DNA of 64,000 bases from NCBI GenBank assembly GCA_963663275.1, contig OY760183.1, positions 3,467,183 through 3,531,182 of the forward strand, given 5' to 3'. Under the pieces are notes generated by a model, which worked only from the letters and a program-made list of their open reading frames with translations, made no database searches and was not told where the DNA came from. Origin of the DNA: Chloroflexota bacterium (GTDB lineage: Bacteria; Chloroflexota; UBA11872; VXOZ01). Both the position numbers and the translations under genes were made by a program. Shown here one piece after another: positions 18,327-54,936 of the stretch; the first letter of the stretch is position 1, and the number at the start of each line of letters is the position of its first letter.

Positions 18327-18330
18327 CGCC

Positions 18331-19170: not shown

Positions 19171-19212
19171 AGTCCTAACAGGATAACGGACGCGCCCCGA
19201 GAGCGGAGCGGC

Positions 19213-19851: not shown

Positions 19852-19873
19852 GCGCTGCTCCTCCGTAAACTTC

Positions 19874-38026: not shown

Positions 38027-38123
38027 CCCTGTGGCCGGTTAACGGACAGAGGTTGCCGTATGCTCCGCCGCGCTCTTATGATTTGAGCGTGCGGGCCTCT
38101 GAACGGACGGTGGGCCCGCTGGG

Positions 38124-38666
38124 GTGGACGCTCTGAGCGAGGCTGTTCTCATCCTGAACCAGAACTACGAGCCGTTGAACGTCTGCGGCGTGAGGCGGGC
38201 GCTGCTCCTTGTCCTGGGGCAGAAGGCGCAGCCCCTCGAGTTGGGTACCGGCGCGTACCACTCCGTGTCGCAGAACTTCCCCATCCCCTCGGTCATACGC
38301 CTGCTGTACATGGTGAAGCGGCCGCTCTTCACGCGCCGCCTCTCCCGCCGCGAGGTGTTCTGGCGGGACCAGTTCTCGTGCCAGTACTGCGGCAGGCAGA
38401 CGCGGGAGCTGACGCTCGACCACGTCGTGCCCCGCGTGCTGAACGGCCCGCACACGTGGGAGAACGTCGTGGCGGCCTGCGTGCCGTGCAACCATCGCAA
38501 GGCGGGGCGCACGCCCGCGCAGGCGAACATGCGCCTGCTGCGCGAGCCGTCGCCGCCGAGGGCGAACCCGTACTACCACCTGATGCACCGCAGCCTGCCC
38601 GACGAGTGGAGCATGTACCTCCCGTGGATGGCGCAGCCGCGCCGACCCTTATCCCCTCTCCCTTGA
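38124..38666 (+). CDS. HNH endonuclease (McrA-like)
   Basis: VLILNQNYEPL, RD.FSCQYCG, LTLDHVVP and WENVVAACVPCNHRK. Confidence 0.92.
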   Translation: MDALSEAVLILNQNYEPLNVCGVRRALLLVLGQKAQPLELGTGAYHSVSQNFPIPSVIRLLYMVKRPLFTRRLSRREVFWRDQFSCQYCGRQTRELTLDHVVPRVLNGPHTWENVVAACVPCNHRKAGRTPAQANMRLLREPSPPRANPYYHLMHRSLPDEWSMYLPWMAQPRRPLSPLP

Positions 38667-39710
38667 GGGGAGAGGGTCAGGGTGAGGGTGAACCAGCGAG
38701 GGGAGAGGGTCAGGGTGAGGGTGAACCAGCAGCGGCGCTTCCAGCATGAACACGTCCAGCGCGAGGCGGACGTTGGCGTTGCGCTCCAGCGCCTCGATGG
38801 TGCGGGTGACGTTCTGCGCCCACCGGACGACGCCGGCCGGTTGCAGGGCGCCCGCGTGCCGTTCCAGCACCTCCCGCCAGGAGAGGTTGGTGATGCTTGC
38901 GCCGTGCCCCTGCTGGATGAGCATGACGTCCCGCAGCCAGCGCAGCCAGAGGAAGAGCTCCTCCCGGCCCGCGCCGCGGTCGCGGTCGATGCGCCGTGCG
39001 AGTTCGCCCGCGTAGGTGAACCGCTCCTCCAGCCCGCCATCGATGGCGTCCACGATCTGCTCCATCCGCTGGTGCACCGACGCGTAGAGCGTATCGTCTC
39101 CGGTTGCGGCGATGGCCCAGCCGATGCAGCCGCGCGAGAGGCGGGCGAGCACCTGCGCCTGCTCTGCGCTCACGCCGTGCTCCTCCTGCAGGACGCGCGC
39201 GACCTCATCCACCGGCAGGGGGCGGAAGTAGAGGGTCTGGCAGCGGGAGCGGACCGTCGGCAACTGGTTGTCCGCGCTCGTGCCGACGAGGATGAGCACC
39301 ACGTCGTCCGGCGGCTCCTCCAGCACCTTGAGCAGGGCGTTGGCGGCGTCGCGGGTGAGGAGGTCGGCCTCGGTGATGACGAACACGCGGGTGCGTCCTT
39401 CGTAGGGGCGCAGGTGGGCGGAGTTGATGAGGTCGCGCACCGCGTCGATGCCGATGGACGCGGCATTCCCGCCGAGGTCGATGAGGCGCACGTCGGCGTG
39501 GTTGCCCTCGGCGATGCGGGTGCAGCTCGGGCAGACGCCGCACGGGGGCGTATCCGCGTCGCAGTTCAGGGCCTGTGCGAACTGGACGGCGAGGGTCGCC
39601 TTGCCCAGGTGCGCGGGGCCGGTGAAGAGGTAGGCGTGGTGGAGGCGGCTCTCCGCCAGTGAGCGTTCCAGGGTCTGAACGGGGAGCTGCTGGCCGTGCA
39701 GACGGAGCAT
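38649..39710 (-). CDS. holB: DNA polymerase III delta' subunit
   Basis: HAYLFTGP..LGK, CxxC zinc motifs, AANALLKVLEEPP and LPTVRSRC. Confidence 0.92.
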   Translation of the reverse strand: MLRLHGQQLPVQTLERSLAESRLHHAYLFTGPAHLGKATLAVQFAQALNCDADTPPCGVCPSCTRIAEGNHADVRLIDLGGNAASIGIDAVRDLINSAHLRPYEGRTRVFVITEADLLTRDAANALLKVLEEPPDDVVLILVGTSADNQLPTVRSRCQTLYFRPLPVDEVARVLQEEHGVSAEQAQVLARLSRGCIGWAIAATGDDTLYASVHQRMEQIVDAIDGGLEERFTYAGELARRIDRDRGAGREELFLWLRWLRDVMLIQQGHGASITNLSWREVLERHAGALQPAGVVRWAQNVTRTIEALERNANVRLALDVFMLEAPLLVHPHPDPLPSLVHPHPDPLPSRERG

Positions 39711-39713
39711 GGG

Positions 39714-41030
39714 TCAGACGACGTCCTGCGCGATGAGGTCCTCGTACGATTCGCGGCGCCGCATCAGGGTCGCCGCGCCCTCCGACGCCATGACGATGGC
39801 GGGGCGGCCGTTCATGTTGTAGACGCTGGCCATGGAGGGGGCGTACGCGCCGGACGCGGGGATGGCGATGATGTCGTTCGCGCGCACGGGAGCGAGGGAG
39901 GCGTCGTGGATCAGTACGTCGCCGGACTCGCAGTACTTCCCGGCGATGGTGACGGTCTCCGTGGCTTCGTCGCCGGCGCGGTTGGCGACGTTGGCGATGT
40001 AGCGCGAGCCGTAGAGCGCGGGGCGGATGTTGTCGCCCATGCCGCCGTCCACGGAGACGTAGGTGCGGACGCCGGGCACCTCCTTGATGGCGCCGACGGT
40101 GTAGACGGCGACCCCGGCAGGGCCGGCGAGCGAGCGTCCGGGCTCGATGGTCAGCTCGGGCCGGGGCAGCCCGTTGGCCGTGCAGCCGTCCGTGAGCGCG
40201 CCGACGATGGCCTCGGCGTAGTCGTCTATCGCGGGGGGCTCGTCGTCCTCTGTGTAGGCGATGGCGAAGCCGCCGCCGGGACTGAAGCGGCGCATGTCGA
40301 GGCCGTATTCGCCCATGCGCGCCGCGAACCGCAGCACCCGCTCGATCGCCTCGGTGTACGGCTCCAGTTCGAAGATGGGCGAGCCGAGGTGGAAGTGGAT
40401 GCCCTGCATGTCCAGGTTGGGCGCGGCCATCACCTGCCGGACCGCCTCCTCGGCGTCGCCGGTCTCGATGGGGAAGCCGAACTTGCTGTCGAGCACACCT
40501 GTGGTGGTGAGGCGGTGGGTGTGCGGGTCGATGGAGGGCGAGACCCTGATGAGGACGGGCTGCCTGCGTCCGACCGCGCCAGCCGCTTCGTTCAGCAGGC
40601 GCAGTTCGTGGAAGCTGTCTATCACGAAGGTCCCAACGCCCCAGGCGACTCCCTGTGCGATCTCCTCGGGCGTCTTGTTGTTGCCGTGGAAGTCGACGGC
40701 GGCGAGGTTGACGCCCGCGGCGCGGAGCACGGCGACCTCGCCGCCCGACACCACGTCGAAACCGAGTCCGAGGCCCGCGAGGTAGCGCGCGAGCGGGACG
40801 TTGATGAACGCCTTGCAGGCGTAGACGACGCGGCTCTCGGGGTAGCGCGAGCGGAAGGCGTCCAGGAAGCCCTCCGCCTGGTTGCGGAGCGTCGCCTCGT
40901 CGAACACGTAGAGGGGCGTGCCGAACTCGCGGGCGAGCGCGGTGACGTCGCAGCCGCCGACCTCGAGGTGGCCGTCATCGTTGACGGCGGTGGTGATGGG
41001 GAAGACTTTCGATTGCAGGGGGACGGACAT
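39714..41030 (-). CDS. lysA: Diaminopimelate decarboxylase
   Basis: GTPLYV, YACKAF, DVVSGGE, HGNNK, EPGRS and GKYCESGD. Confidence 0.95.
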   Translation of the reverse strand: MSVPLQSKVFPITTAVNDDGHLEVGGCDVTALAREFGTPLYVFDEATLRNQAEGFLDAFRSRYPESRVVYACKAFINVPLARYLAGLGLGFDVVSGGEVAVLRAAGVNLAAVDFHGNNKTPEEIAQGVAWGVGTFVIDSFHELRLLNEAAGAVGRRQPVLIRVSPSIDPHTHRLTTTGVLDSKFGFPIETGDAEEAVRQVMAAPNLDMQGIHFHLGSPIFELEPYTEAIERVLRFAARMGEYGLDMRRFSPGGGFAIAYTEDDEPPAIDDYAEAIVGALTDGCTANGLPRPELTIEPGRSLAGPAGVAVYTVGAIKEVPGVRTYVSVDGGMGDNIRPALYGSRYIANVANRAGDEATETVTIAGKYCESGDVLIHDASLAPVRANDIIAIPASGAYAPSMASVYNMNGRPAIVMASEGAATLMRRRESYEDLIAQDVV

Positions 41031-41179
41031 GGGGTTCTCCTGTGAGTGGTCGCGGGTTAAGTATGCCGCCTCGCGCCGCCGCGCGCCATCGGCGGGAGGG
41101 GTCCTCACCGCTCATGGCGACCCGTCGACTATCCCCCGCGCCCTTCGTCTCGACACACAGTGCAACCCCGGGACCGGGC

Positions 41180-42229
41180 TTAGTCGCCCATGGCCCCGCC
41201 GATGTCCCTGCGCTTGAATATCCAGGAAGTCGCTGCAACGAAGAAGACGGTATATGCGAGGACGGTCACGAAGGCCTCGCTCGTTTCCGAAGAACCTTCG
41301 CCGACCGGCGTGGCTGTCCAGGCGCGGAAGCCCTGAATCAGAAGCCGGTCCGCGGCATTGGCAAGCGTGTCGCTGAGGTTGAGAAGCGGCGCGGCGATGG
41401 ATTCGACGATGAAATACCCGACTGAGAGCGCTATCCCCAGACCGCGAGAAGACGTAAGCACGGTGGCGAAGGCGCTGAGCGCTATGAATGGCAGGAATCC
41501 ATAGATGCTCTTGAACGAGATGATGGCCACGTCGGACCACTTACCGGCATCGACGAGCCCTCCCGTCTCGTCCGGGGAGAGCAGACCGGCTGCCAGGCTG
41601 GACGCAACGGATACCGCTGCGATGACGGTGAGTACGCCGGCGCATAGGCACAGGAGCAGAAGGAGTTTCGCGGAGAGGAATCTCCACCGTCCGATGCCTC
41701 CGGCGAGGACCGTCCGCAGGGTGCCCCACCCGTATTCAGATCCCACGAGGGAAGCCGTGAGGATCATGATGAGCAGGAGGCCTATCGCAACGGGGCCCAG
41801 TGAAGAAAACCCGGAGATGCTTGCGGTCATGCTGTTCGGCAGTGTGAAACCCCTGCGAAGCTCCTCGGCGGATTGGAAGTTGTCGCATGTCCCGTCGGCA
41901 AGCCATTCGTCCACATTCTTCCAGTACTCCTGCAGCCGCTCTTCAGGGATCTGATCAAGGCCTGTTGGGACTCGGCCCCTCACCGCATCCGCGCAGGTCA
42001 TCGTCACCGAGACCTCCCGGCCTTCCTCTTCCCATGAGACGCTGTAAGAAGCGAAGGCGCCGGTGACGACCTGTTGCACCGTGTCGTTGTGGTAGGCCAG
42101 ATAGTTGGTCCAGATGCCCATTTGCGAGATCAGCACGGCTACCGCGAGCAGGACCCACGGCATCCGGAGCCGCCGGAGCTTGAACCACTCCCATCTTGTG
42201 AGACGGAGGACTTCCTGTATCGGCATCAT
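41180..42229 (-). CDS. ABC-2 type permease
   Basis: WEWFKL, GSEYGWGTLR and FLSAK; multiple TM segments. Confidence 0.85.
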   Translation of the reverse strand: MMPIQEVLRLTRWEWFKLRRLRMPWVLLAVAVLISQMGIWTNYLAYHNDTVQQVVTGAFASYSVSWEEEGREVSVTMTCADAVRGRVPTGLDQIPEERLQEYWKNVDEWLADGTCDNFQSAEELRRGFTLPNSMTASISGFSSLGPVAIGLLLIMILTASLVGSEYGWGTLRTVLAGGIGRWRFLSAKLLLLLCLCAGVLTVIAAVSVASSLAAGLLSPDETGGLVDAGKWSDVAIISFKSIYGFLPFIALSAFATVLTSSRGLGIALSVGYFIVESIAAPLLNLSDTLANAADRLLIQGFRAWTATPVGEGSSETSEAFVTVLAYTVFFVAATSWIFKRRDIGGAMGD

Positions 42230-43380
42230 GCGTTCTCCGGTCTTTCTTCCCGGGCGTTGGTGACTTCGAGGAAGTATCGTTCCAGGGCGCCGCGACCCGG
42301 GTTTGCCTCGATCACGTAGACGCCCGAGCGTCCGAGGGCCGTGGAGACCAGCGCTGACCTGTCGCTTGGAGCGGATACGACGATTACGCCGTTCTCCGTC
42401 TGCACGTCTTCGATCCAGTCCAGCTCGGAGAGGATTGCCACGGCCTTCTCGTCGTCGGTGGTACTGAGCCGGATCTGATTTCCAGATTGGAGGATCTCTG
42501 AAACGCCCCCTTGGGCGATGAGCGTTCCCTTGGACATGATGGCCACGCTGTCGCACACCTGCTCGACCTCATTGAGCAGGTGACTCGCCATGAGCACCGT
42601 TCTCCCGTCTGCACAGAGTTCGCGGATCAGGTGGCGGACTTCGGCCATGCCCGCAGGGTCCATGCCATTCGTGGGTTCATCGAGGAAGAGCACCTCAGGG
42701 CCGCCGAGAAGGGCAAAGGCAAGGCCCAGGCGCTGCTTCATGCCGAGCGAGTACGTGCTGAAGCGTTTGTCCCCGCTGTCTGCGAGCCCGACCCTGTCGA
42801 GCAAGCCGTCGATGTCTTCCGGTGCGCCCCGTTCGAAGATGCCTTGGAAGTAGAGAAGGTTCTCTCGACCGGTGAGGTAGGGGTAGAAGGATGGATACTC
42901 GATGATCGCGCCCACGCGGCGCAGGGACTCTTCGAGCCCGGCGGTAGAGCCGAAGAGGCTGAAGGTGCCGGAGGTCGGCCGCACCAACCCAAGCAGCATC
43001 CCCATCGTGGTTGTCTTCCCTGATCCATTCGGACCAAGCAGCGCGAAGGCGTGGCCGTGCGGGACGGACATTGAGAGGCCGTCCACAGCCGCGATACTCC
43101 CGTAGACCTTGGTAAGCGCCTCGGTCTCTATGATGGGCCTGTCCTTGCTCATGCCGAACCCTCCTGCGTGTTCCCTGATAGCAGAAGCCGCAAGGTCGAA
43201 GAGCAACTGCGTCCATATGACCAGCCTTCGCAGACCTCTGCCGTCGCAACGCATCCTGTCGCGGAAGAACTGCAGCATCAGCTCTCCGTACTCTCGCCGG
43301 AATTCCCTCGGGTACACCACGAGGAGCACCCGGTACACGCCTTCAGAGAACATGTCGGATCCCTCGCCTCCGGACGACAT
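42226..43380 (-). CDS. ABC transporter ATP-binding protein with an N-terminal YPxxFR extension
   Basis: GPNGSGKTT, YSLGMKQRL and LDEPTNG; the ATPase core starts at ~43152. Confidence 0.88.
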   Translation of the reverse strand: MSSGGEGSDMFSEGVYRVLLVVYPREFRREYGELMLQFFRDRMRCDGRGLRRLVIWTQLLFDLAASAIREHAGGFGMSKDRPIIETEALTKVYGSIAAVDGLSMSVPHGHAFALLGPNGSGKTTTMGMLLGLVRPTSGTFSLFGSTAGLEESLRRVGAIIEYPSFYPYLTGRENLLYFQGIFERGAPEDIDGLLDRVGLADSGDKRFSTYSLGMKQRLGLAFALLGGPEVLFLDEPTNGMDPAGMAEVRHLIRELCADGRTVLMASHLLNEVEQVCDSVAIMSKGTLIAQGGVSEILQSGNQIRLSTTDDEKAVAILSELDWIEDVQTENGVIVVSAPSDRSALVSTALGRSGVYVIEANPGRGALERYFLEVTNAREERPENA

Positions 43381-43726
43381 TCGCCTGCCTTGTCCTTGCA
43401 GTGCGGGCGAGTTGCTCTAAACGGACCACCTCGGCATCGAGGACGCGGGCGCCCAAGTCGGTCAGGCGGTAGTAACGTCGACGTTCGTCGTCTAATGCGG
43501 GGTCTGGCCGTTCGGAGCTCTCTTCGATCAGCCCGGCCTTCAGCATCTGCTTGACGGCCCCGTACAGCGTGCCCGGACCCATGGTGACCGCGCCGCCGGT
43601 GAACGCTTCGATCTCCTTCATGATGGCGTAGCCGTGATTGTCCCCGGTGGCCAGGGCGAGCAGGATGTGCAACTGAGAGGTCGGCAAGGGGAGCATCTCA
43701 GGGGTCAGTCGAGTCGGCGTTGTCAC
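43343..43726 (-). CDS. PadR family transcriptional regulator
   Basis: ILLAL...HGYAIMKE...GPGTLY...RRRYYRLTDLG. Confidence 0.92.
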   Translation of the reverse strand: MTTPTRLTPEMLPLPTSQLHILLALATGDNHGYAIMKEIEAFTGGAVTMGPGTLYGAVKQMLKAGLIEESSERPDPALDDERRRYYRLTDLGARVLDAEVVRLEQLARTARTRQANVVRRRGIRHVL

Positions 43727-43782
43727 TGTGGTCCTGCCAGGAGTTCCCGTTCGTTCACTGCAACGAAGTATAACGTCTGCCG

Positions 43783-43820
43783 CTATACCGTCTATCGATA
43801 TAGCATACACCGATATATAT
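43783..43820. promoter_or_regulatory. Candidate PadR operator palindrome
   Basis: CTATAcCG-N5-CGaTATAG imperfect inverted repeat upstream of padR, followed by a second CGATATA half-site. Confidence 0.5.
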
Positions 43821-43878
43821 GTCAATGCCCTCCTCATGGAGGGATAATGCCCCCGACAAGTTGCCGCCAGGAGAAGCC

Positions 43879-44427
43879 ATGCCACGCATCGAGATGATTA
43901 CCGACAAGGGCCAGATCCCCGAGGACCGGCACGCCGAGTTCGACGCGATCGTCGAAACGCTTCACGGGGTGCGCGGGCCTTTCGCCGTCCTCATGCACAG
44001 CCCCGGCCTCGCCCGGAAAGTCATGGAGGCCGGCGCGCAGGTCCGGTTGGGCTCGACGCTCAGCCCGGTCGAGCGCGAACTGGCCATCATCGCCGTCGCC
44101 AGGGAGAAGGACGCGACCTACGAGTGGGCCGCGCACGTGAGAGCCGGACGCGCCGCCGGCATGCGGGAAGAGGCCATCGAAGCCGTCAGGCACAGGCAGG
44201 ACACCGGCGGCCTTGAAGAGGACGAGCGTGACATCATCGAGTTCGTACGGCAACTCCTGCGGAACAACAAGGTCGAGCAAGACCTCTTCGACGCGCTGGA
44301 GGGCCGCAAGGGCGTCCGATGGCTCGTCGAACTCGCTGCCACCGTCGGTCAGTACCAGTACATCTCGGCGATCAATACCGCGTTCGGCGTCGTTGCGGCC
44401 CCGGACGCGGACCAGCTCCCCGTCTGA
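43879..44427 (+). CDS. Carboxymuconolactone decarboxylase / AhpD-like protein
   Basis: GPF..LMHSP, RELAI, YEWAAH...GR.AG. Confidence 0.85.
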   Translation: MPRIEMITDKGQIPEDRHAEFDAIVETLHGVRGPFAVLMHSPGLARKVMEAGAQVRLGSTLSPVERELAIIAVAREKDATYEWAAHVRAGRAAGMREEAIEAVRHRQDTGGLEEDERDIIEFVRQLLRNNKVEQDLFDALEGRKGVRWLVELAATVGQYQYISAINTAFGVVAAPDADQLPV

Positions 44428-44522
44428 GGCGCTCCGGCCCCGCTCAACATGACATGACTCGTCATGCGGCGCCGTGCTGCGTTGCGCTAGAATCCCGCCA
44501 TCCGTTCGAGGGAGGAACGAAC

Positions 44523-45581
44523 ATGAAGGCAGCGGTGATGCAGGGCGTCGACTGGGACCTCGTGATCGAGGACTTCGAGACGCCGGACGTTGACGACGAC
44601 GACGTGCTGCTCGAAGTGACGGCGTGCGGCGTCTGCCACACGGACCTGAAGGTGCAGGACGGATCGATACCCACTTCGCTGCCCGCCGTGCTGGGGCACG
44701 AAGTCTCCGGCGTGGTCGTGGGCACGGGCAAGAACCAGCGGGACCACTTCAAGGACGGCGACAGCGTGACGGTGGGCATGCGCTTCCGCTGCGGGCGCTG
44801 CGAATACTGCATGACCGGGCTGTCGAACCTCTGCCAGCAGATGCCGCTCGGCTCGCCGTACCGCAGGGCGGGCGGGGAGACGGTGACGCGCTGGAACGTC
44901 GGCGGCTTCACGCAGCTGCTGTCGGTGCCGGCGTACATGGTGTTCCACCTGCCGGACGGCGTGGGGCTGGAGGAGTCGTGCATCGTGGGCTGCCGGGTGA
45001 CGACCGCCTACAACGCGGTGAAGAACGGCGCGCACCTCGCGCCGGGCGAGTCGGCGATGGTCATCGGGTGCGGCGGCGTGGGGCTGAACATCATCCAGAT
45101 GCTGCGGCTGTTCGGCGCGTACCCCATCGTCGCGGTGGACGTGGTCGGCAGCAAGCTGGAGGCGGCGATCTCCTACGGCGCGTCCCACATCGTGAACGCG
45201 GCCTCCGACGACCCGGTGGAGGCGACGAAGGAGATCACGAAGGGCGGCGCGCGCAAGACGTTCGAGGCGATCGGCAACCCGGTGACCGCCGACCAGATCG
45301 TGCGGGCGACGCGCCCGACGGGCACGGCCACCATCGTCGGCGCGATGCCGCCGGGCCCCATCACCATCAACGACTCGCGCTTCCCGTTCAAGGAGATCAA
45401 GGTGACGGGCGTGGCGATGCGCCGGACGAGCGACGTGACCGAGGTGCTCGACCTCGTGTCGCAGGGTCGCATCGAGCTCGGCTCGTTCATCACGAAGAGG
45501 TACGGGTTCGAGCAGATCAACGAGGCGATCGAGGACGTGCACCACGGCAACGTGCTGATGGGCATCACGCTGTGGAATTAA
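44523..45581 (+). CDS. Zn-dependent alcohol dehydrogenase
   Basis: CGVCHTD, LGHE, CGRCEYC...C and GCGGVG. Confidence 0.93.
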   Translation: MKAAVMQGVDWDLVIEDFETPDVDDDDVLLEVTACGVCHTDLKVQDGSIPTSLPAVLGHEVSGVVVGTGKNQRDHFKDGDSVTVGMRFRCGRCEYCMTGLSNLCQQMPLGSPYRRAGGETVTRWNVGGFTQLLSVPAYMVFHLPDGVGLEESCIVGCRVTTAYNAVKNGAHLAPGESAMVIGCGGVGLNIIQMLRLFGAYPIVAVDVVGSKLEAAISYGASHIVNAASDDPVEATKEITKGGARKTFEAIGNPVTADQIVRATRPTGTATIVGAMPPGPITINDSRFPFKEIKVTGVAMRRTSDVTEVLDLVSQGRIELGSFITKRYGFEQINEAIEDVHHGNVLMGITLWN

Positions 45582-45656
45582 GACCAGGGCCAGGGCTGCG
45601 GGATTCCCGCCTGCGCGGGAATGACGGGTAAGATTGAACGGCGAAAGGAGGGCGGC

Positions 45657-46454
45657 ATGACACAGGCGTTCGGAGCGTACGGGCTAGGCACGGCGAAAGG
45701 CATCGGGGAGCACCTCGCCTTCCTGGAGCCGACGCCCAAGCGGATCCGCGCGACGTTCGGCGGCGAGACGATCGTCGACAGCAGGCACGCGGTCCTCATG
45801 TACGAGACGCGGCACCAGCCGGTCTACTACTTCCCGATGGCCGACGTGCGGATGGACCTGCTGGAGGAGACCGACAAGAGCACCTTCTGACCGATCAAGG
45901 GAGACGCTCAGTACTGGAGCGTCAAGGTCGGCGACCGGGTGGAGGAGAACGCGGTCTGGGCATACCAGGAGCCGTTGGAAGGCTGCCTGGACGCGCGGGA
46001 CTACGTGGCGTTCTACTGGAACAGGATGGACGGCTGGTTCGAGGAGGAGGAAGAGGTCTTCATCGGCCCGAAGGACCCGTACACGCGCGTCGACTGCCTG
46101 CGAAGTTCGCGCCACGTGCGCGTGGAGTTGAACGGCGTCACCGTCGCGGAGACGGACAGCCCCGTGATGCTGCTGGAGACCGGGCTGCCGCACCGCTACT
46201 ACATCCCCGGCAAGGACGTGCGGAAGGAGCTGCTGCGCCCGAGCGAGCGCGTGCTGGGCTCCACGTACAAGGGGCTGGCGGGCTACTTCCACGCGGACGT
46301 GGGCGGCGAGACGTTCGAGGACGTGGCGTGGACGTACCGCGACCCGACCGCGGAGTGCGCGAAGATCACGGGGTACGTCTGCTTCCCGCAGGGCAAGGCG
46401 GACGTGTACGTGGACGGCGAACTGGAGCCGAAGCCCAACACGAGGTGGGATTAG
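45657..46454 (+). CDS. Double-DUF427 protein with in-frame UGA (putative selenocysteine) at 45888-45890
   Basis: YET...PVYYFP..DV...T.F-TGA-PIKGDAQYW (family motif T.CP.KG.A.Y). The frame continues to 46454, a hairpin follows the TGA, and there is a GAAAGGAGG RBS. Confidence 0.85.
45891..45931 (+). promoter_or_regulatory. Putative bacterial SECIS element
   Basis: Lower stem CCGATC/GGTCGG, upper stem GACGCTC/GAGCGTC, and a small G-first apical loop (GTAC) 20 nt after the UGA. Confidence 0.72.
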
Positions 46455-46460
46455 CGGGCC

Positions 46461-47312
46461 CTACTCCTCGAACTCGCCGCGCAGTTCGCGGTAGAGGCGG
46501 GACATGAGCGGCGGGAGGCGGTCCTCCTGCCGTCCCCACCCGGAGAACGGGCCGAGGTCGAGCGACGCCAGCGCCTCCTCCTCGGAGTGGCCCTGCGCGA
46601 AACTGCGCTTGCCCTGCTCCGTGATGCGCAGCAGGCACTCGCGCATCTCGGCCATGTCGGCGCGCGTCCCCAGCGGCCCGTGCCCCGGCACCACGACGTC
46701 GCACTCGACCTGCGCCGCACGGTCGGCGGTGTCCGCCCACGCGAGCGGGAAGCCGTCGCGCGCGTTCGGGATGTACCGGTGGAAGGAGAGGTCGCCCGCG
46801 AACAGCACGCCCTCCGTCGGCAGGTAGACGGCGATGTCGCCGCGCGTGTGCGCTCTGCCGAAGAAGCGCAGCTCGACGGGCCGCTCGCCGAGATGGAGCG
46901 TGAGGGTGTCGCTGAACGTGAGGTTGGGGGGCGTCTGCGGCAGGTCGCGCCACTCCTCGTAGAGCGCGGGGTAGAGGTCGCGCAGGAACGCGCGGTGCGT
47001 ATCCCACTCGGCGGCGAGGTCGTCGCGGCAGGTGTCGTGTGCGACGATGGGCGCCTGCGGCATGAGCGCGTTGCCGAAGAGGTGGTCGCCGTGCCAGTGC
47101 GTGTTCACGACGTAGCGCACGGGTTTGTCGGTCACGCGGCGCGCCTCGGCGAGCAGCCGCTCCGCGAGCGCGGGCGTCATGAGCGTGTCGATGATGACGA
47201 CGCCCTCCTCCTCGACGAGGAAGCCCGCGTCCGTCGCGCCGCCCGCCTGGATGAATGCGTACGCGCCGGGGGCGACCTCGATGGCGCCGGTCTGGTAATC
47301 GCCCTGCGTCAT
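46461..47312 (-). CDS. MBL-fold metallo-hydrolase (cyclase-like)
   Basis: NTHWHGDHLFGN, AHTRGD, FAGDL and VPGHG. Confidence 0.88.
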   Translation of the reverse strand: MTQGDYQTGAIEVAPGAYAFIQAGGATDAGFLVEEEGVVIIDTLMTPALAERLLAEARRVTDKPVRYVVNTHWHGDHLFGNALMPQAPIVAHDTCRDDLAAEWDTHRAFLRDLYPALYEEWRDLPQTPPNLTFSDTLTLHLGERPVELRFFGRAHTRGDIAVYLPTEGVLFAGDLSFHRYIPNARDGFPLAWADTADRAAQVECDVVVPGHGPLGTRADMAEMRECLLRITEQGKRSFAQGHSEEEALASLDLGPFSGWGRQEDRLPPLMSRLYRELRGEFEE

Positions 47313-48250
47313 GCCCGCAACTCCGGCACGACCTTGGCGCTCAGCAGGTCGACGGTGCGCTGTACGTCGGCGAGGCTTCGCGCCTGCGGGAGGAAGACGA
47401 AGTGGCTCACGCCCGCCTCCGCGTACTCCGCGAGCGTCGCTGCGATCTGCTGCGGCTCGCCGGTGAGCGCGCCGCGCTTCTCCGCACCCGCGAGGTCCGG
47501 CTCGCTCCGCAGGTCGACGAGCACCCGGAGCGAGAGCGCGACCGCGTTGTCGCCGCGTCCGTGGGCCGCCGCCTCCTCGTTCATGGCGCGGTGCGCCTCC
47601 GCGAGCGCCTGGGGCGTCGTGGCGAACAGCGGCGGGAACCAGGCGTCGCCGTACTTCGCGGCGCGGCGCATCACCGGTTTGCTGTGGCCGCCGACCCAGA
47701 TGGGCGGGTGGGGCGTCTGCGCGGGGTGCGGGTAGGACTCGACGCCCTGCACGTCGAAGAAACGCCCCTCGAAGCGCACCTCCGGCTCCGTCCAAGCCGC
47801 GCGCACGAGGCGGAGGCTCTCGTCGAGCACAGCGCCGCGCCGGTCGAAGTCGAGGCCGAGCGCGTCGAACTCCTCGCGGAGCCAGCCCGCCGCGACGCCG
47901 AGGATGCTCCGTCCGCCGGAGAGCACGTCCAGCGTCGCCGTCGTCTTGGCCGCCGCGAGGGGGTGGCGCAGGGGGAGCAGCGTGACCGCCGTGCCGAGCT
48001 TCACCCGCGACGTGAACCCCGCCACCCAGGCGAGCGTCGTGAACTGGTCGAGGAAGGGCAGCCCGGGCGCGATGAGGAACTCGCCGTCGGCGCTGTAGGG
48101 ATAGGTGGAGGTGTGGCTGGTCGGGAGCACGACGTGGTCGGCTGCCCAGACGGAGTCGAGGCCGGACGCCTCGGCCTGCCCGGCGACGAGCCGCACGGCT
48201 GAGGGGTCGTCCATGCCGATGGTGGGGAGCGACACGCCGAACTCAATCAT
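47309..48250 (-). CDS. LLM-class (probably F420-dependent) oxidoreductase
   Basis: SVWAADHVVLP....YPY, ATLDVLSGGR, GWLREEF and PPIWVGG. Confidence 0.88.
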   Translation of the reverse strand: MIEFGVSLPTIGMDDPSAVRLVAGQAEASGLDSVWAADHVVLPTSHTSTYPYSADGEFLIAPGLPFLDQFTTLAWVAGFTSRVKLGTAVTLLPLRHPLAAAKTTATLDVLSGGRSILGVAAGWLREEFDALGLDFDRRGAVLDESLRLVRAAWTEPEVRFEGRFFDVQGVESYPHPAQTPHPPIWVGGHSKPVMRRAAKYGDAWFPPLFATTPQALAEAHRAMNEEAAAHGRGDNAVALSLRVLVDLRSEPDLAGAEKRGALTGEPQQIAATLAEYAEAGVSHFVFLPQARSLADVQRTVDLLSAKVVPELRA

Positions 48251-48324
48251 GGGGTGCATGGTACAGGACGAGGCGTCGCCCGCGTATACTTGCGCGGCAT
48301 CCTTGACCGTACGGAGGCGCACCG

Positions 48325-49056
48325 ATGGCGCTCGACCCGAGAGACTTTCTCGCCGAGATGCAGCAGTTGCAGGAGCGGAAGCACAGCCGCAAGCACCCGC
48401 TGTTCGACATGATCGAGGAGGGCAGGCTCACGCGCCCGCAGCTCAACGGCTTCATCAAGCAGTTCTACCTGCTCTTCCCCAAGCCGTTCCCGAAGCCGAT
48501 CGCGGCGATGTTCGCCCGCGCTCCGCAGGACACGGAACTCGAGCGCATGTGGTTCGAGAACCTCTCGGAGGAGGCCGAGGGCGGCGAGACCGGCACCGCG
48601 GGCCACAAGGAGCTGTACATCCGCTTCGCCGAGGCCGCCGGCATCCCTCGCGACGAACTCAACGCGACCCAGCCGCTGCCGGAGACGCGGGGCCTGCTCA
48701 ACTGGCGCGAGTTGCTCATCGGCCAGCGCTCGTGGCTGGAGCTGTACGCGTCGCAGGGGTTGGCGCTGGAGGGCACGGCCAGCGGTCGGATGCACCGCGT
48801 GGTCAACGGCCTCGTCGACCACTACGGCTTCGAGCGCGACAGCGACGACATCCTGTACTGGACGCTGCACATGTCGGTCGACGAGGAGCACATGAAGGTG
48901 GGCCCGTACGTCATTGAGAAGTACGCGGTGAGCGACTTGGAACAGCAGTCGGTGCGGGAGTCGCTGAACGCGACGCTCGACATCTTCTGGCTGGTCTACG
49001 ACGGCATCGTGCGCGCCTTCGTGGACGAGGACCCGCTGTACGAGGAGTGGCGGTAG
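48325..49056 (+). CDS. PqqC/TenA/CADD-like (heme-oxygenase-like) redox protein
   Basis: HPLF, ENLSEE...H.ELY, E...YWTLH...DEEH putative metal ligands. Confidence 0.82.
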   Translation: MALDPRDFLAEMQQLQERKHSRKHPLFDMIEEGRLTRPQLNGFIKQFYLLFPKPFPKPIAAMFARAPQDTELERMWFENLSEEAEGGETGTAGHKELYIRFAEAAGIPRDELNATQPLPETRGLLNWRELLIGQRSWLELYASQGLALEGTASGRMHRVVNGLVDHYGFERDSDDILYWTLHMSVDEEHMKVGPYVIEKYAVSDLEQQSVRESLNATLDIFWLVYDGIVRAFVDEDPLYEEWR

Positions 49057-49067
49057 GGGGTACCCCC

Positions 49068-50250
49068 TTACGTTCGGGTGGGGGCGGCGCCGGGGGCGGT
49101 CCAGCGGTGGGTGGGCTGCTTCTGCCAGACGTCCTCGTCGATGTTGGTGTCGACGATGGGGTGGTCCGGGTCGCGGATGACGCCCAGCGGGTCCTCGCCG
49201 TGCGCGACACGCTCCATCTGCTCGAACATCGTGCGGCGCAGCAGGACGACGCCCCGGTCGGAGTACGAGAGGTGCTCGACGGAGCGGTCGGTGACGGGGC
49301 CCTGCGTCTCCCATGCCATGTGATCCTGCGAGAGCACGGAGCGGCGGTCGTACCACGCCTCCGGGTGGCTCTTGTCCGCAGGCTCCTTGTACGTCTCGAT
49401 GTACTCGACGGGTGGGTCCCACGTCGTCTCGTCCGGCTGGCCGTCCTCGTTCAGCCAGAAGTTGATGTGGACGTGCCAGGTGTGGGTGTCGTCAATCGGC
49501 GTGCGGAACTGCGTGCTCGGCCCCTGGCGGAGGATGGACGGGAAGAGGACGGGGTGCTCGTCCACGACGCCGTTGGTGTAGGTGCGCTTCTTCATCAAGC
49601 CGTAGCCGGTGAGGTAGAACTCGAACGAGTCCACGTCGTCGGTGAAGCCGCGCGTCGTGTTGACGGGCTCGCGCTGGCCGCGCGCGTAGTACTCCTGGTG
49701 GAGTATCTGGAGGTGCGCCGGGTCCATGGAGTTCTCCATGGCCTGGAACCAGTTGCAGTCCAGCACGGGGTGGGACGTTTATCTTGCGGCGTCCGTCCTC
49801 CCGCACGAGCGTGTCGAACGGGGTGAAGACGGGCGCGGGCCTCGGGCCCATGTACGCCCAGACGACGCCGAGGTAGACCTTGCAGTCGTAGGCGGGCTGC
49901 TTGACGGAGCGCATAATCGCCTCGTTCTTCTCGGGCGGCGTTTCGAGGATGTTGCCCTCGGTGTCGTAGAGCCAGCCGTGGTAGGCGCAGGCGATGCCGC
50001 GCTCCTCGACGCGCCCGTAGACGAGCGACGCGCTGCGGTGCGCGCAGTGGTCGGCGAGCAGCCCCCAGCGCCCGGACTTGTCGCGGAAGATGACGAGGTC
50101 CTCGCCGAGGATGCGGACAGCCTTCGTCGGGCGCTCGTCCGTGACCTCGGACGCGATGGCGATGGGGTGCCAGTAGCGCCGGAGCAGTTCGCCCGCGGGC
50201 GTGCCGGGGCCGACGCGCGTGAGTTTCTCGTTGTCCGCTTTCGTCAGCAT
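49068..50250 (-). CDS. Rieske non-heme iron oxygenase alpha subunit (phthalate dioxygenase-like; apparent extra C at ~49772)
   Basis: RRYWHP, CAHR...CAYHGW, then CNWFQAMENSMDPAH..ILH and QD..AWETQG in a shifted frame. Confidence 0.88.
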
Positions 50251-50273
50251 GACGCTCTTCCTCCCGTGCCGGG

Positions 50274-51644
50274 CTAGACGTTCTGGCCCACCATCTTGCG
50301 GCGCTCGATGGAGTCCGCGCCGCCCTCGATGCCGCGCTGGGTCAGGATCGGGCTGTACTTGCTCGCCATGCCCTGGCGCCGGATGCCCTTCTGTCCCTCC
50401 CCGCGCTCCTCGTACTGCTCGTTCCGGCGAGACTTGTGCTCCGTGTCCATGCCGAGGTAGACGTTGGACGCCGGGTCGCGGAACGTGTTGATGGGGTCGC
50501 CGCCGTCCTCGACGATGCGGATGTTCTCCTCCAGCATGCGGCGGAACATGATGATGCCCTTGTCCGAGCGCCCGAGCGACTCCTTGGTGCGGTCGGCTAT
50601 CGCGCCCTGCGTTATCCACGCGGCGACGTCCTGCGCGGAGTTGGAGTCGAGTATCTCGAAGCGGACACGCCCGTCCTCGGCGAGTTGGATGAGCGGCGGG
50701 AAGAAGAGCGGCACGTCCTCGTCGCGCTGCTCGGGGTCGTCCGCCGACAGCTTCGGGTGGCACATCACCCACCAGTGGCCGGTGTGCGTGTCGTCCAGCG
50801 GCACGCGGATCTGGAACGACGGGCCGACGCCTGCGCCCATGCCGCCCCCGCGCCTGCCGTCCCACGTGTCGATCGCGGTGCCGCTGCCGCCCTGGCGGAG
50901 GAAGTAGGGGAAGACGATGGGGTGGCCCTGCGCCCACTCGCCGTCCTCGTAGCTGCCGCCCTTGACGAGCCTGCGCTTGTAGATGCCGTACTGGAACTTG
51001 TCGAAGCCGATGCGCTCGTTCTCGTAGCGCTTGCGGACCTTGTCGCCCTCGCCGCGCATCTCCAGGATGTAGTTCGCCCACTCGCCGTGCAGCCACTCGG
51101 AGTGGACGGGGTCGAGTGAGTTCTCCTGGCACTGGAGCCAGTTGCTCGGCAGTTCCGTGTATCCGATGTCCCGCACGACGTTGTCGAGCGCGAACACGTC
51201 CCAGTTGGGGAGGAGCGGCACGGGGGCCGGGCCGAGGTAGGCGAAGATGAGGCCGGCCTTCACCTCCAGCGGGTACGCCTTGATGCGCACCTTGTCCTTG
51301 AAGCGGTTGTCCGGGGCCTCGGTCTCCTCGTAGGGCTGTTCGAGGCAGCGGCCCGTCTCGTCGAACATCCAGCCGTGGTAGGGGCAGCGGATGCCGTCGT
51401 CGGTGGGAATGCCGTAGACCATGCCCATGCGGCGGTGGGGGCAGTAGTTGTCCACGAGGCCGAAGACGCCCTGGTTGCTCTTGTAGAGGATGAGGTCCTC
51501 GCCGAGCAGTTTGATGGGCTTGGTCGAACGGTCATTCATCATGGCGACGGCGGCGATGGGGTGCCAGTAGCGGCGCATCAGTTCGCCGGTCGGCGTGCCG
51601 GGACCTACTCTCGTCAGGCGGTCGTTCTGTTCAGCGGTCAGCAT
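50274..51644 (-). CDS. Rieske non-heme iron oxygenase alpha subunit (paralogue)
   Basis: CPHR...CPYHGW, NWLQCQENSLDPVHSEWLH and QDVAAWITQG. Confidence 0.92.
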   Translation of the reverse strand: MLTAEQNDRLTRVGPGTPTGELMRRYWHPIAAVAMMNDRSTKPIKLLGEDLILYKSNQGVFGLVDNYCPHRRMGMVYGIPTDDGIRCPYHGWMFDETGRCLEQPYEETEAPDNRFKDKVRIKAYPLEVKAGLIFAYLGPAPVPLLPNWDVFALDNVVRDIGYTELPSNWLQCQENSLDPVHSEWLHGEWANYILEMRGEGDKVRKRYENERIGFDKFQYGIYKRRLVKGGSYEDGEWAQGHPIVFPYFLRQGGSGTAIDTWDGRRGGGMGAGVGPSFQIRVPLDDTHTGHWWVMCHPKLSADDPEQRDEDVPLFFPPLIQLAEDGRVRFEILDSNSAQDVAAWITQGAIADRTKESLGRSDKGIIMFRRMLEENIRIVEDGGDPINTFRDPASNVYLGMDTEHKSRRNEQYEERGEGQKGIRRQGMASKYSPILTQRGIEGGADSIERRKMVGQNV

Positions 51645-51677
51645 CAGCGTTCCTCCCTCGGGTTGCTGTCTTTCTGC

Positions 51678-52772
51678 TTATCCTGCGGTACCGGCGAGAA
51701 CGGGGGACTCCACGGTGATGCCGTAGAAGTCCAGGGCGTTCTGCCCCATGATGTCGTCGATCACGTTCGGCGCGAGGCCGCCCTCCTCCTTGATGATGCG
51801 CATCGCCTCGATCTCGCTCGACTGGTCCTGGTGGCCGTAGTCGGTGCCGATGAGGATGTGGCGGTGGTTCACGTACTTGAGCACGTCGGGGAGGTTGTCG
51901 TCGGTCTGGGCGGTGACCCAGATGTTGTACGCGCCGAGCACATCCTCCTCCAACTCGCGGCCCCGCGTCTCCAGCCTGCGGCGCAGGTCGTGGATGGCGT
52001 AGGGCAGCCACTGGCTGCTCGCCTCGATGTAGCCCCAGCGCAGGTCCGGGAACTTCTTGGGCGTGGCGGTGGTGACGAGCTGGTGGAAGCTGGCGACGGA
52101 CATGAGGCGCAGACCGCCGAACGTGCCGCCGATGCCGTCCTTCGCCATGAGGCCGCGGATGTAGGCGTTGGAGTTGCCGATGTGGATGGCGATGGGCTGG
52201 TTCAGCCGCGAGGCCTCCTCGTAGACGGGGTAGAAGTACTCGTCTATCAGCAGCCGCTCGTCCTCGATGGTGCGCATCGTGACGCCGCAGGCGCCGTGCT
52301 CCGCAGACCAGCGCAACTGCTCCAGCGCCTCGTCCATCGTGGCGAGCGGGAGGATGGACGTCCACCGGAGGCGCCCGTTGCTCTGCTGCCAGATGTCGGC
52401 GAGCCAGCGGTTGTAGCTCTTGGCGAGGGCGACCTCGGTGTCCGGGTTCTCGCACATGCGCCCGATGTACATGGTGGGGTAGAGCACCTGCACGTCTATG
52501 CCGAGTTCGTCCATGTGGGCGACGCGTCCGGGGATGTCCTCCATGTAGCGCTTGGAGTCGTCCGTCACCATGTTGCGCTTCACCTTGTCGGAGAGGCCGA
52601 AAGCGGCGACGGGCCCGCGCGCGCGGCCGCGTATCTCGCCGTCTATCTTCCAGAACTTGGCGCCGGTGCCGTCGTCCACCACCTGCGGGCGGTGCTTCTC
52701 ATCGCCGGGGTCCATGTAGTCCCAGGTCTGCTCCGTCTCGACCACGTGCGCGTCAGAGTCGATAACCGGCAT
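51678..52772 (-). CDS. Amidohydrolase_2 family protein
   Basis: IDSDAHVVE, GIDVQVLYPT, YNRWLAD and GTDYGH. Confidence 0.9.
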   Translation of the reverse strand: MPVIDSDAHVVETEQTWDYMDPGDEKHRPQVVDDGTGAKFWKIDGEIRGRARGPVAAFGLSDKVKRNMVTDDSKRYMEDIPGRVAHMDELGIDVQVLYPTMYIGRMCENPDTEVALAKSYNRWLADIWQQSNGRLRWTSILPLATMDEALEQLRWSAEHGACGVTMRTIEDERLLIDEYFYPVYEEASRLNQPIAIHIGNSNAYIRGLMAKDGIGGTFGGLRLMSVASFHQLVTTATPKKFPDLRWGYIEASSQWLPYAIHDLRRRLETRGRELEEDVLGAYNIWVTAQTDDNLPDVLKYVNHRHILIGTDYGHQDQSSEIEAMRIIKEEGGLAPNVIDDIMGQNALDFYGITVESPVLAGTAG

Positions 52773-52940
52773 GGCTGCCCTCCTTGCCGCTCCCGTTTCC
52801 GGCGTCCGCTCCGGAGCGGATGCGCATAGTTCGACAAGTGGGACGCTAGCACCGCGCGGACTGAGTGTCAAAGCGTTGCATGCGTACGCGCGGGCGCTTC
52901 GGCCTACAATGCGCGCATCAGCGACACGGGAGGCTACGCC

Positions 52941-53528
52941 ATGCTCGAACTGCCCGCACGGGAGACGCTTGCTTACGTCTGCCACGACATGCAGAACGAC
53001 TACCTGAAGGAGGGAGGGCGGACGCCCGAGGCGGGCCGCAATCCCCGCGCGCCGCAGCTCATCGAGAACCACGTCCGCCTGCTGGCGGCGGCGCGCGCCG
53101 CCGGGCTGCCGGTGTTCTTCACCGGCCACTTCCTCCGCGAGGACTACCTGGACGCCGCAAGGCACGGGCGCGCCCGTTCGCTCGGCTCGCTGCGGGACGG
53201 CACGTGGGGCGCGGACGTGATCGACGAACTCGCGCCGCTGCCCGGCGAGTTCCTCATCCGCAAGGGCGGCGGGATGAGCGCGTTCACGGGCACGGCGCTG
53301 GAGAAGTGGCTGCGGCGCCTCGGCGTGTCGACGCTCATCGTCGCGGGCATCGCCACGCAGGCGGGCGTCGAGAGCACGGTGCGGGACGCCCGGGAGCGGG
53401 ACTTCGACAACATCGTCGTGGGCGACGCGTGCGACGGGCGCACGGAGAACCACGAGGCGTCGCTGCTCAACATGGGCACGTTCTCGCAGGTGGTCTCGAC
53501 GGAGGATGTTGTGGCGGCGCTGGCCTGA
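52941..53528 (+). CDS. Isochorismatase-family hydrolase
   Basis: DMQND, GTWGA, K...SAF.GT and GIATQAGVESTVRDA. Confidence 0.88.
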   Translation: MLELPARETLAYVCHDMQNDYLKEGGRTPEAGRNPRAPQLIENHVRLLAAARAAGLPVFFTGHFLREDYLDAARHGRARSLGSLRDGTWGADVIDELAPLPGEFLIRKGGGMSAFTGTALEKWLRRLGVSTLIVAGIATQAGVESTVRDARERDFDNIVVGDACDGRTENHEASLLNMGTFSQVVSTEDVVAALA

Positions 53529-53532
53529 GCCG

Positions 53533-54936
53533 TCACTCTTCGAGGCGGTTGATCCCGTTCAGCGCCGCCGTCACGTACGCCTCGGCCAGCGTCGGGTAGT
53601 TGATGACGGCCTCGATGAAGTAGTTGATCGTCCCGCCGAGCGCGACGACCGCCTGCCCGATCTGCACCAACTCCGCTGCGCCCTCGCCGGCGACGTGGAC
53701 GCCGAGCAGCACCTTCGTCTCGACGTGGAAGAGCAGCTTCAGCAGGCCGGTGTCGTCGCCCTGCATCACACCGCTTGCGATCTCCCGGTAGTGCGCCTTC
53801 CCGGTCTCGTAGGGGACGCCCTCTTCCGTGAGTTGCGACTCCGTCTTGCCCACCATCGCGACCTCGGGGATCGTCTTGACCGCGTAGGGGAAGAGGCCGG
53901 GGAAGCTGTTGGTGGGGACGCCGAACGCGTGGCACGCGGCCAGGCGGCCCTGCATCTGGGACGTGGCCACGAGGTCGGGAAAGCCGATGACGCCTCCCAC
54001 CGCGTAGATGCTCTCCACGCTCGTCCGGTAGTGCTCGTCCACGCTCAGGCGGCCCCGGCTGTCCGCCTGCAGCCCGGCGGCCTCCAGGTTGAGCGACTCC
54101 GTAGCGCCGGTGCGCCCGACGCAGTACATCACCGCGTCGCTCAGCAGTTGCGCGCCGCTCTTCAGGAGGACGCGCACGTGGTCGCCGCGCTCGCCGCGCA
54201 GGTACTCGATGTCGAACACGTCCTCGTTCATGCGGAACGTCACGCCGTTCTGCTCCATCTGGCGGACGAGGGTGTCCACGATCTCGTCGTCCGCGAACGG
54301 GAGCAGACGCCCGCTCCTGTCCACGAGCGTGACCTGCACGCCCAGCGCGGCGAAGGTGCAGGAGTACTCAAGGCCGATCGCGCCGCCGCCCACGATGGTC
54401 AGCGTGTCCGGCAGGGACGGCAGGTCCAGCACGTCGTCGCTCACGAAGATCAGCCGCCCGTCCGTGTGGATCGTGGGAGGTTCCGTGGAGTAGGTCCCCA
54501 CCGCGATGACGACCGTTCCGGCGGTGATCGCGCCGCCGGGGGCGCCGTCGCCGTAGCGCAGGTTCAGCGTGTGCCGGTCGGCGAAGGACGCTTCCGCGTT
54601 GACGATCTCCGCCCCGTTCCGGGTGAGTTGGTCGCGGAGCACGTCCGCCTGCTGGCGCATCACGTGGCCGGTGCTCACCATGAGGTCGCTCATGGTGACG
54701 CGCTCCTTGACGGTGTAGCCCTCGCCGTAGAGGCTGCGCTCCCTGAAACCGGTCAGGTCCAGCGCCGCCTCCCGCACCGCCTTGCTCGCCGTTCCCGTGG
54801 TCACGTTGATTCCGCCGACGTGCGGCAGGCGTTCGACGACGGCCACGCGCTTCCCCAGCTTCGCAGCCTGGATCGCAGCCCGGTGGCCCGCCGGTCCCGA
54901 CCCGATGACCACCATGTCGTAGTCGTAGTCAGTCAT
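53533..54936 (-). CDS. sthA: Soluble pyridine nucleotide transhydrogenase
   Basis: GSGPAG..AAIQAAKLGK, GGGAIGLEY and NYPTLAEAY..AALN. Confidence 0.85.
   Translation of the reverse strand: MTDYDYDMVVIGSGPAGHRAAIQAAKLGKRVAVVERLPHVGGINVTTGTASKAVREAALDLTGFRERSLYGEGYTVKERVTMSDLMVSTGHVMRQQADVLRDQLTRNGAEIVNAEASFADRHTLNLRYGDGAPGGAITAGTVVIAVGTYSTEPPTIHTDGRLIFVSDDVLDLPSLPDTLTIVGGGAIGLEYSCTFAALGVQVTLVDRSGRLLPFADDEIVDTLVRQMEQNGVTFRMNEDVFDIEYLRGERGDHVRVLLKSGAQLLSDAVMYCVGRTGATESLNLEAAGLQADSRGRLSVDEHYRTSVESIYAVGGVIGFPDLVATSQMQGRLAACHAFGVPTNSFPGLFPYAVKTIPEVAMVGKTESQLTEEGVPYETGKAHYREIASGVMQGDDTGLLKLLFHVETKVLLGVHVAGEGAAELVQIGQAVVALGGTINYFIEAVINYPTLAEAYVTAALNGINRLEE

Follow-up and report, generated by a model that had tools for sequence, protein, structure and literature searches.

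Within a 64,000-nucleotide stretch of DNA from a Chloroflexota bacterium (assembly GCA_963663275.1, contig OY760183.1, positions 3,467,183 to 3,531,182), which we call the window, a plus-strand gene for a protein with two DUF427 domains is interrupted by one in-frame TGA at 45888-45890. This TGA is very probably a genuine selenocysteine (Sec) codon. It stands at the invariant Cys column of the first DUF427 domain, it is conserved at this column in homologues, it is directly followed by a hairpin resembling a bacterial selenocysteine insertion sequence (SECIS), and the genomes that carry the TGA form contain Sec machinery. According to the proposed mechanism, the gene from 45657 to 46454 would give rise to one 265-residue protein with two DUF427 domains of the beta-tent fold. 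The UGA would be decoded as Sec by SelB and Sec-tRNA(Sec), and the SECIS hairpin directly 3' of the UGA, inside the coding sequence, would direct this decoding. Sec would thereby substitute for the single invariant Cys of the motif T-x-C-P-x-K-G-x-A-x-Y-W, and DUF427 would have its catalytic centre, redox or nucleophilic, at this Cys/Sec position. A preliminary description of the locus, made from the letters of the window alone, had suggested a hidden selenoprotein, and this interpretation is now supported by Cys/TGA pairs, by a TGA-specific hairpin and by Sec genes in the carriers.

The proposed full-length gene runs on the plus strand from 45657 to 46454 and comprises 265 codons and a TAG stop at 46452-46454. 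The TGA at 45888-45890 is the sole interruption of this frame. The list of open reading frames (ORFs) made with translation table 11 cuts the gene into 45621-45890 and 45939-46454, and both pieces indeed lie in the same frame, as the preliminary description had stated. Read-through translation yields ...DKSTF-U-PIKGDAQYWSVKVG..., also written ...DKSTF-U-PIKGDAQYW..., which reproduces the reading KSTF-*-PIKGDAQYW given earlier for the site. The proposed Sec is residue 78 when counted from 45657 and residue 90 in the numbering of P0001, which starts at 45621. With Pfam, the read-through product contains two PF04248/DUF427 domains (E 7.5e-65; 215.2 bits vs a gathering score of 22.1), with 109.9 and 103.9 bits for the individual domains, so that the protein belongs to DUF427 and the gene is rightly called a double-DUF427 gene. 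Domain 1, the proposed carrier of Sec, spans 45744-46019 (PF04248 positions 1-92 of 93). Domain 2 spans 46116-46388 (PF04248 positions 1-91) and contains the motif GSTYKG, in which Ser replaces the motif Cys.

The start of the gene at 45657, assumed in the preliminary description, is well founded. A Shine-Dalgarno-like AAGGAGG (45645-45651) is located 5 nt 5' of this ATG, and a purine-rich GGAG or GAGG stretch precedes the ATG in most homologous loci with TGA at the site. ATG 45657 is the conserved start, and M-T-Q is common to 35 of the 37 TGA-form loci described below. The upstream ATG at 45621 is not conserved and sits within a palindromic repeat.

From a genome collection in which each species is represented once, we retrieved 80 homologous loci and inspected the codon aligned with the TGA. 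It is TGA in 37 loci, TGC in 33, TGT in 9 and a gap in one (L101), so that Cys or Sec is found at this column in 79 of 80 loci and the expected Cys/TGA pairs are indeed present. Together with the window, the set comprises 38 Sec forms and 42 Cys forms. Four of the 42 Cys rows stem from unpublished genomes (G086 with L072, G104 with L090, G106 with L092 and G107 with L093); these four also contribute 4 of 30 selA-positive rows and 7 of 111 neighbour ORFs in the counts below, and no conclusion rests on them. The TGA forms share 55-96% protein identity with the window. Among the best 120 database proteins, 8 are C-terminal halves of 171 amino acids with 77-92% identity, from which we conclude that other annotation pipelines made the same split.

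In a quick IQ-TREE tree, the window and 36 TGA forms of Dehalococcoidia/SAR202 type form one clade with a support of 98 in the Shimodaira-Hasegawa-like approximate likelihood ratio test (SH-aLRT), and this Sec clade adjoins Cys-form Dehalococcoidia. The metagenome-assembled genome (MAG) of a Nitrospinota bacterium (locus L066) carries TGA at the column outside of the main clade and represents an independent case. The tree therefore requires two changes at this column.

Directly 3' of the UGA, a SECIS-like hairpin is located inside the coding sequence at 45891-45931 on the plus strand. Its lower stem is formed by 45891-45896 with 45926-45931 and is followed by an internal loop; the upper stem of 7-8 bp and the apical loop occupy 45903-45923, with the loop at 45910-45916. 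The apical loop is AGUACUG on a stem of 7 bp, or a GUAC tetraloop closed by A-U with a bulged A; the upper stem of 8 bp with bulged A and GUAC tetraloop is the variant with C at column 21. Both pairs of arms, CCGAUC/GGUCGG and GACGCUC/GAGCGUC, are present, and the loop begins 19-20 nt past the UGA. For the 48 nt counted from the UGA, this two-stem hairpin is the minimum free energy (MFE) structure with -17.9 kcal/mol (z -2.68; 3 of 200 shuffled sequences fold as well), in agreement with the arms and the GUAC loop 20 nt from the UGA that the preliminary description had given. The fold of a 61-nt cut-out with flanks is unexceptional (z -0.51).

The bacterial SECIS (bSECIS) model, as summarized in the legend of Fig. 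2 of PMC13188914, requires a loop of 3-9 nt, a stem of 4-16 bp, a G in the first two loop positions, a spacing of 16-37 nt and an MFE at or below -7.5. We scored the geometry directly against these quoted values and permitted a bulge of one nucleotide. The hairpin of the window fits the model with a stem of 7 bp, the loop AGUACUG, a spacing of 19 nt and the energy of -17.9 kcal/mol. When the MFE structures are compared, 21 of 22 distinct TGA-form sequences conform to the model vs 8 of 41 Cys-form sequences; if a strictly contiguous stem is demanded, the numbers are 13/22 vs 6/41. The hairpin, whose conservation in relatives the preliminary description had proposed to check, is thus both kept and specific to TGA forms. 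Over 26 distinct sequences, pairing is retained in 92-95% of cells, and in the upper stem 98.1% of cells are paired. There is a single compensatory change, from C-G to U-A in L062, and there are one-sided changes that preserve pairing, namely U-G to C-G in 10 of 26 and A-U to G-U in 8 of 26 sequences. The hairpin also overlies the strongest synonymous-site constraint of the gene. In the Sec forms, the five windows with lowest synonymous variation (14 codons each, 255 along the gene) start at -2 to +2 from the UGA. Synonymous variation near the UGA is 0.20 vs 0.34 elsewhere in the Sec forms, and 0.40 vs 0.46 in the Cys forms. In the Nitrospinota locus, the best hairpin (L066:3199-3262) has 7 bp, a GGAC loop and a spacing of 41 nt, which lies beyond the 16-37 nt range of the model.

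Among the 37 genomes with a TGA form, none is devoid of Sec genes. The tRNA-Sec is found in 37/37, selA in 36/37 (not in G075) and selB in 36/37 (not in G044); the tRNA-Sec of G041, for example, has the anticodon UCA. In the 43 Cys- or gap-form genomes, selA exceeds the cut-off in 30, which shows that Sec users can keep Cys forms. The search for Sec machinery advised in the preliminary description thus had a positive outcome in 36-37 of 37 TGA-form genomes. The window's own contig carries tRNA-Sec (UCA), selA, selB and selD as well, but these genes lie in DNA of different composition.

The window is in fact the compositionally foreign end of its contig and belongs to the last ~125 kb (contig C1 of genome G000, about 3,403,000-3,531,182). 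Tetranucleotide composition shifts near 3.403-3.407 Mb, and only the last 6 of 176 bins of 20 kb resemble the window. Long syntenic blocks with 90-96% DNA identity connect window positions 1-20000 to five TGA-form MAGs, but the same five MAGs share only 67-68% DNA identity with the selA region of the contig. Five genomes of the contig's genus match window positions 36000-54000 at ~70% DNA identity in one gene and short repeats only. A PF04248 scan of all 97 other genomes of the contig's class detected no DUF427 domain, and a protein search of the genomes of 40 relatives gave no match. Given the shift in composition, the matches to SAR202-type MAGs and the absence of DUF427 from these genomes of the class, the last ~125 kb were either mis-joined or acquired very recently as a large insertion, the source being an organism of SAR202 type. 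Since the window lies in this foreign terminal DNA, we tested the Sec trait in the TGA-form genomes. Within the window, positions 4001-12000 have a G+C content of 0.57-0.58 vs 0.64-0.71 in most of the window. In the bulk of the contig, selD (G000:C1:3051010-3051993, minus strand, locus L022) is itself a selenoprotein gene, whose in-frame TGA occupies the canonical site (...DCAG-U-AGK...) and precedes a hairpin. We considered this selD SECIS as a comparison for the hairpin described here; it is a different hairpin with no loop motif in common, and the comparison is uninformative because selD sits in bulk DNA and may be another organism's.

The alternative that survives best, and one we regard as quite improbable, is that a near-cognate or suppressor tRNA reads the UGA and inserts Cys, Trp or Arg. 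The nucleotide after the UGA is C in 38 of 38 sequences, and UGA-C is a weak termination context. Insertion of another residue, however, leaves unexplained why a SECIS-type hairpin is specific to TGA forms and why tRNA-Sec, selA and selB occur in 36-37 of 37 carriers. Second matches to the Rfam tRNA-Sec model, with ~50 bits just above the cut-off, occur in most TGA-form genomes (e.g. G041:C5:104230-104320), but the four that were checked are all ordinary long-arm tRNA-Ser with anticodon GCU or UGA and no readers of UGA. In addition, TGA is frequent as a normal stop in the surrounding DNA: it closes 35 of 79 long frames with high G+C at third codon positions (GC3) in the terminal 124 kb, and 1394 of 3288 long frames contig-wide.

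Still less probable is a true stop that has been kept. The locus would then give an N-terminal fragment of 77 residues and, from a start of its own, a C-terminal protein, and the two may reassemble. Gene callers annotate precisely such an ORF of 171 amino acids from GTG 45939. This GTG, however, is not conserved as a start and is replaced elsewhere by GTC, GTT, GAG, ATC or ACG. From 338-351 random pairs per segment in the Sec group, we obtain ratios of nonsynonymous to synonymous substitution rates (dN/dS) of 0.24 5' of the UGA and 0.18 past the annotated GTG, and the 16 codons that separate these two sites give 0.11. Purifying selection thus acts on both sides of the UGA (dN/dS 0.11-0.24), and the strongest constraint in the gene falls on the 16 codons that a separate start would leave out. 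These codons contain the conserved motif and belong, in the structure model, to two strands of domain 1 (residues 94-103 and 106-114), so that the fold of a C-terminal protein with its own start would be incomplete. In no TGA-form locus is there a frame shift between the two parts, as single high-scoring segment pairs span the site.

The TGA, which the preliminary description had advised to confirm in raw reads, is also found at the site in contigs of independent libraries. The position 45888-45890 is bridged by a contig from an independent sponge metagenome (X2, record 25) and by contigs from RNA libraries of three studies (X15, record 6; X16, record 13; X18, records 18-21), and there is no difference at 45888-45890 among those listed, DNA and RNA contigs alike. 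One 50-nt RNA-library contig (X18, record 19) is identical to 45885-45934, which includes the UGA and the hairpin. A nonsense mutation, a pseudogene or a sequencing error of the assembly, to which the doubtful integrity of the contig at the window end and the indels noted earlier elsewhere in the window might point, is refuted by the same TGA in 37 independently assembled genomes of different species, by its presence in contigs of other runs and by purifying selection.

Several observations weigh against the assignment of the UGA as a Sec codon or weaken parts of its support. The lower stem of the hairpin is weakly kept, with pair 6-42 broken in 8 of 26 sequences. Counted on three registers of the hairpin, covariation is not significant: one or two pairs change on both sides, which is matched by 41-67 of 500 shuffles. 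Support for the hairpin consequently comes from conservation and specificity, and the synonymous constraint is better evidence for an RNA element than covariation. Part of the conservation of the hairpin is forced by the conserved peptide PIKGDAQYWSV, and raw MFE does not discriminate between TGA and Cys forms, with means of -16.3 vs -15.9; the two differ in SECIS-type geometry instead. In the Nitrospinota locus L066, no conforming hairpin is found within 48 nt of the UGA. The search against Rfam gives no family match and returns only two chance snoRNA rows with E-values of 0.87 and 6.9. The library evidence consists of contigs, and RNA libraries can hold DNA, so that it shows the presence of the TGA and not its translation. 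The Sec genes on the window's own contig may belong to another organism. Finally, we infer the actual insertion of Sec and its chemistry from comparative sequence data.

The structure model of the protein has a predicted local distance difference test score (pLDDT) of 88.5 and a predicted template modelling score (pTM) of 0.83. In this model, the Sec column is located at the end of the strand 81-90, ahead of the P-x-K-G turn, and forms the tip of a beta-hairpin. In domain 1, the polar residues E62, Y69, Y70 and D75 are invariant, and R41, R43, D53, R77, D79, K93 and Y98 are nearly invariant. This polar conservation within the domain looks like that of an enzyme site.

The two domains differ in their reactive residues. 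The motif Cys of domain 2 is present in 42 of 42 Cys forms, and it is Ser in 36 of 38 Sec forms. In the window, the Ser codon TCC at 46260-46262 (plus strand) is the domain-2 equivalent of the Sec column, in line with the earlier description of GSTYKG as a second motif devoid of Cys. Among the Sec forms, only the basal L062 and the independent L066 keep the domain-2 Cys. With Ser in domain 2, the Sec clade retains the reactive residue in domain 1 only, and because L062 as a basal member still has the domain-2 Cys, the distribution suggests that Sec was gained first in domain 1 and the domain-2 Cys was lost afterwards. A further Cys (TGC at 46095-46097, plus strand), which the model places in the first strand of domain 2, is specific to the Sec clade. 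It is found in 33 of 38 Sec forms vs 0 of 42 Cys forms and is a candidate resolving Cys. We infer a catalytic role for Sec, be it redox or nucleophilic. Its gain would have left the second site expendable, and the new Cys may be resolving.

In mammals, MsrB1 uses Sec in a beta-tent fold together with a resolving Cys. The gene gfa adjoins formaldehyde dehydrogenase. As a tentative and rather doubtful proposal, DUF427 might represent an unrecognized Cys/Sec-dependent family of beta-tent enzymes with a Cys or Sec at the hairpin tip and MsrB-like chemistry, in which the gain of Sec would have rendered the second site dispensable (Cys to Ser) and a new resolving Cys would have been acquired. In one branch of this proposal, an oxidized S or Se substrate would be reduced via a sulfenic or selenenic intermediate. 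In the other, a thio- or seleno-hemiacetal would pass an aldehyde to an adjoining Zn-dependent alcohol dehydrogenase (Zn-ADH), as is thought for GFA and formaldehyde dehydrogenase. MsrB and GFA are absent among the 50 Foldseek matches listed, and by sequence the protein belongs to neither family, as the Pfam scan gives PF04248 alone and neither the SelR nor the GFA model. DUF427 has been assigned to the beta-tent fold together with MsrB, GFA, Mss4, TCTP and Yippee, as a member without zinc site, in the consulted part of PMC4287342.

A Zn-ADH gene is indeed found directly upstream (44523-45581, plus strand; PF08240 and PF00107) and is a possible operon partner. This position and orientation of the Zn-ADH recur in 20 of 37 TGA-form loci vs 0 of 42 Cys-form loci. 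Its NCBIfam matches are all far under the cut-off. The preliminary description had placed the gene just downstream of an AhpD-like protein and a Zn-ADH. Both lie upstream, but the CMD/AhpD-like gene is not coupled, as it occurs in 13 of 37 TGA-form loci on either strand, and the Zn-ADH is the more constant neighbour. Three downstream genes accompany the DUF427 gene in 10-16 of 37 TGA-form loci, namely an MBL-fold hydrolase (46461-47270, minus strand), for which the nearest models are SoxH-related metallohydrolases far under the cut-off, an F420-dependent LLM oxidoreductase (47309-48322, minus strand; TIGR03619, over the cut-off) and a haem-oxygenase-like/TENA protein (48325-49056, plus strand). 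A tally of 111 flanking ORFs from 59 loci, from which the 21 loci that share the neighbourhood of the window were excluded, reveals no recurrent partner, with AMP-binding proteins at 10/111 and acyl-CoA dehydrogenases at 7/111. For COG2343/DUF427, a co-occurrence of 5.7% with sulfoxide synthases is given in the consulted part of PMC13674229. There is no EgtB-type synthase among the 25 flanking families listed, and this co-occurrence is therefore not seen for the tandem subfamily.

The palindromic repeat that contains ATG 45621 has the form ATTCCCGC-N4-GCGGGAAT and is located at 45603-45622, between the stop of the Zn-ADH gene and the ribosome-binding site of the DUF427 gene. It also occurs at 3868 and 21802 of the window. 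The contig contains 25 copies of the repeat core, 6 of them in the last 128 kb, and related copies are found in genomes of the same genus and in several TGA-form loci. Contig depth spikes at 45600-45630 to 3282 in a sponge metagenome and to 841 in an RNA library. The repeat looks like a repetitive extragenic palindromic (REP)-like element common in sponge symbionts.

The Sec assignment adds a family to the known selenoproteins. An inventory from 2026 comprises 119 prokaryotic selenoprotein families and subfamilies (PMC13188914, Table 1). In the main text of that paper, PF04248 has 0 occurrences and DUF427 is absent, the string '427' being part of a grant number only. No model of NCBIfam release 20 matches the protein, the NF-numbered selenoprotein models included. 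We found no link of DUF427, PF04248 or COG2343 to selenoproteins in the literature, in a search that lay outside the supplementary family lists of BSepDB and deep-Sep. According to the consulted part of PMC13326102, BSepDB searched only previously reported families. The preliminary description did not know DUF427 as an established selenoprotein family, in agreement with the literature found, the main text of PMC13188914 and NCBIfam. Given its absence from all three, we conclude that tandem DUF427 is a new selenoprotein family within a well-known kind of system. Because current inventories and annotation models do not contain this family, the gene is annotated as two pieces in dozens of public genomes from SAR202-type Chloroflexota, both marine and sponge-associated. 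DUF427 occurs in thousands of proteins from bacteria and fungi and has a solved structure but no known function. Exchange of Sec and Cys is one of few purely genomic signals for a catalytic residue, and in this case the signal falls on the invariant Cys of the domain, so that the function of the family becomes directly testable. The suggested order, with the gain of Sec followed by the loss of the domain-2 Cys, is of interest for the way in which Sec alters the costs and benefits of an active site.

The closest structural relative is the solved DUF427 protein 3DJM from Rhodobacter sphaeroides, in which the Cys of 'TACPLKGEASYY' (TACPLKG) aligns with the TGA. The match is apparent in sequence (E 2.6e-13) as well as in fold, with a Foldseek E-value of 3.6e-09 to the model, a template modelling (TM) score of 0.87-0.91 and a root mean square deviation of 1.4 A. 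3DJM differs in being a single domain and in having Cys at the Sec column. As it has no known function or ligand, it gives no chemistry. Next after 3DJM, beta-tent proteins of the Mis18/Yippee type match the model with a Foldseek probability of 0.98-0.99, and it is through these matches only that kinship in fold with the beta-tent enzymes is apparent here. The consulted part of PMC4287342 describes no significant sequence similarity between DUF427 and the beta-tent proteins MsrB, GFA, Mss4, TCTP, Yippee/Mis18 and CULT. The Cys-form tandem DUF427 proteins of about 274 amino acids, e.g. P0038 of Rubrobacter tropicus with 54% identity, share the architecture, the length and the domain-1 motif T-x-C-P-x-K-G-x-A-x-Y-W, but they have Cys in both domains (42/42) and lack the Cys at 46095-46097. 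With the known bacterial selenoprotein genes, as they are described in the main text of PMC13188914, the DUF427 gene has in common that its in-frame UGA aligns with Cys in homologues, that its hairpin conforms to the bSECIS model and that the carrier genomes utilize Sec. It differs from them in that it has no CxxU or UxxC redox motif, and the proposed Sec is instead part of the motif T-x-U-P-x-K-G.

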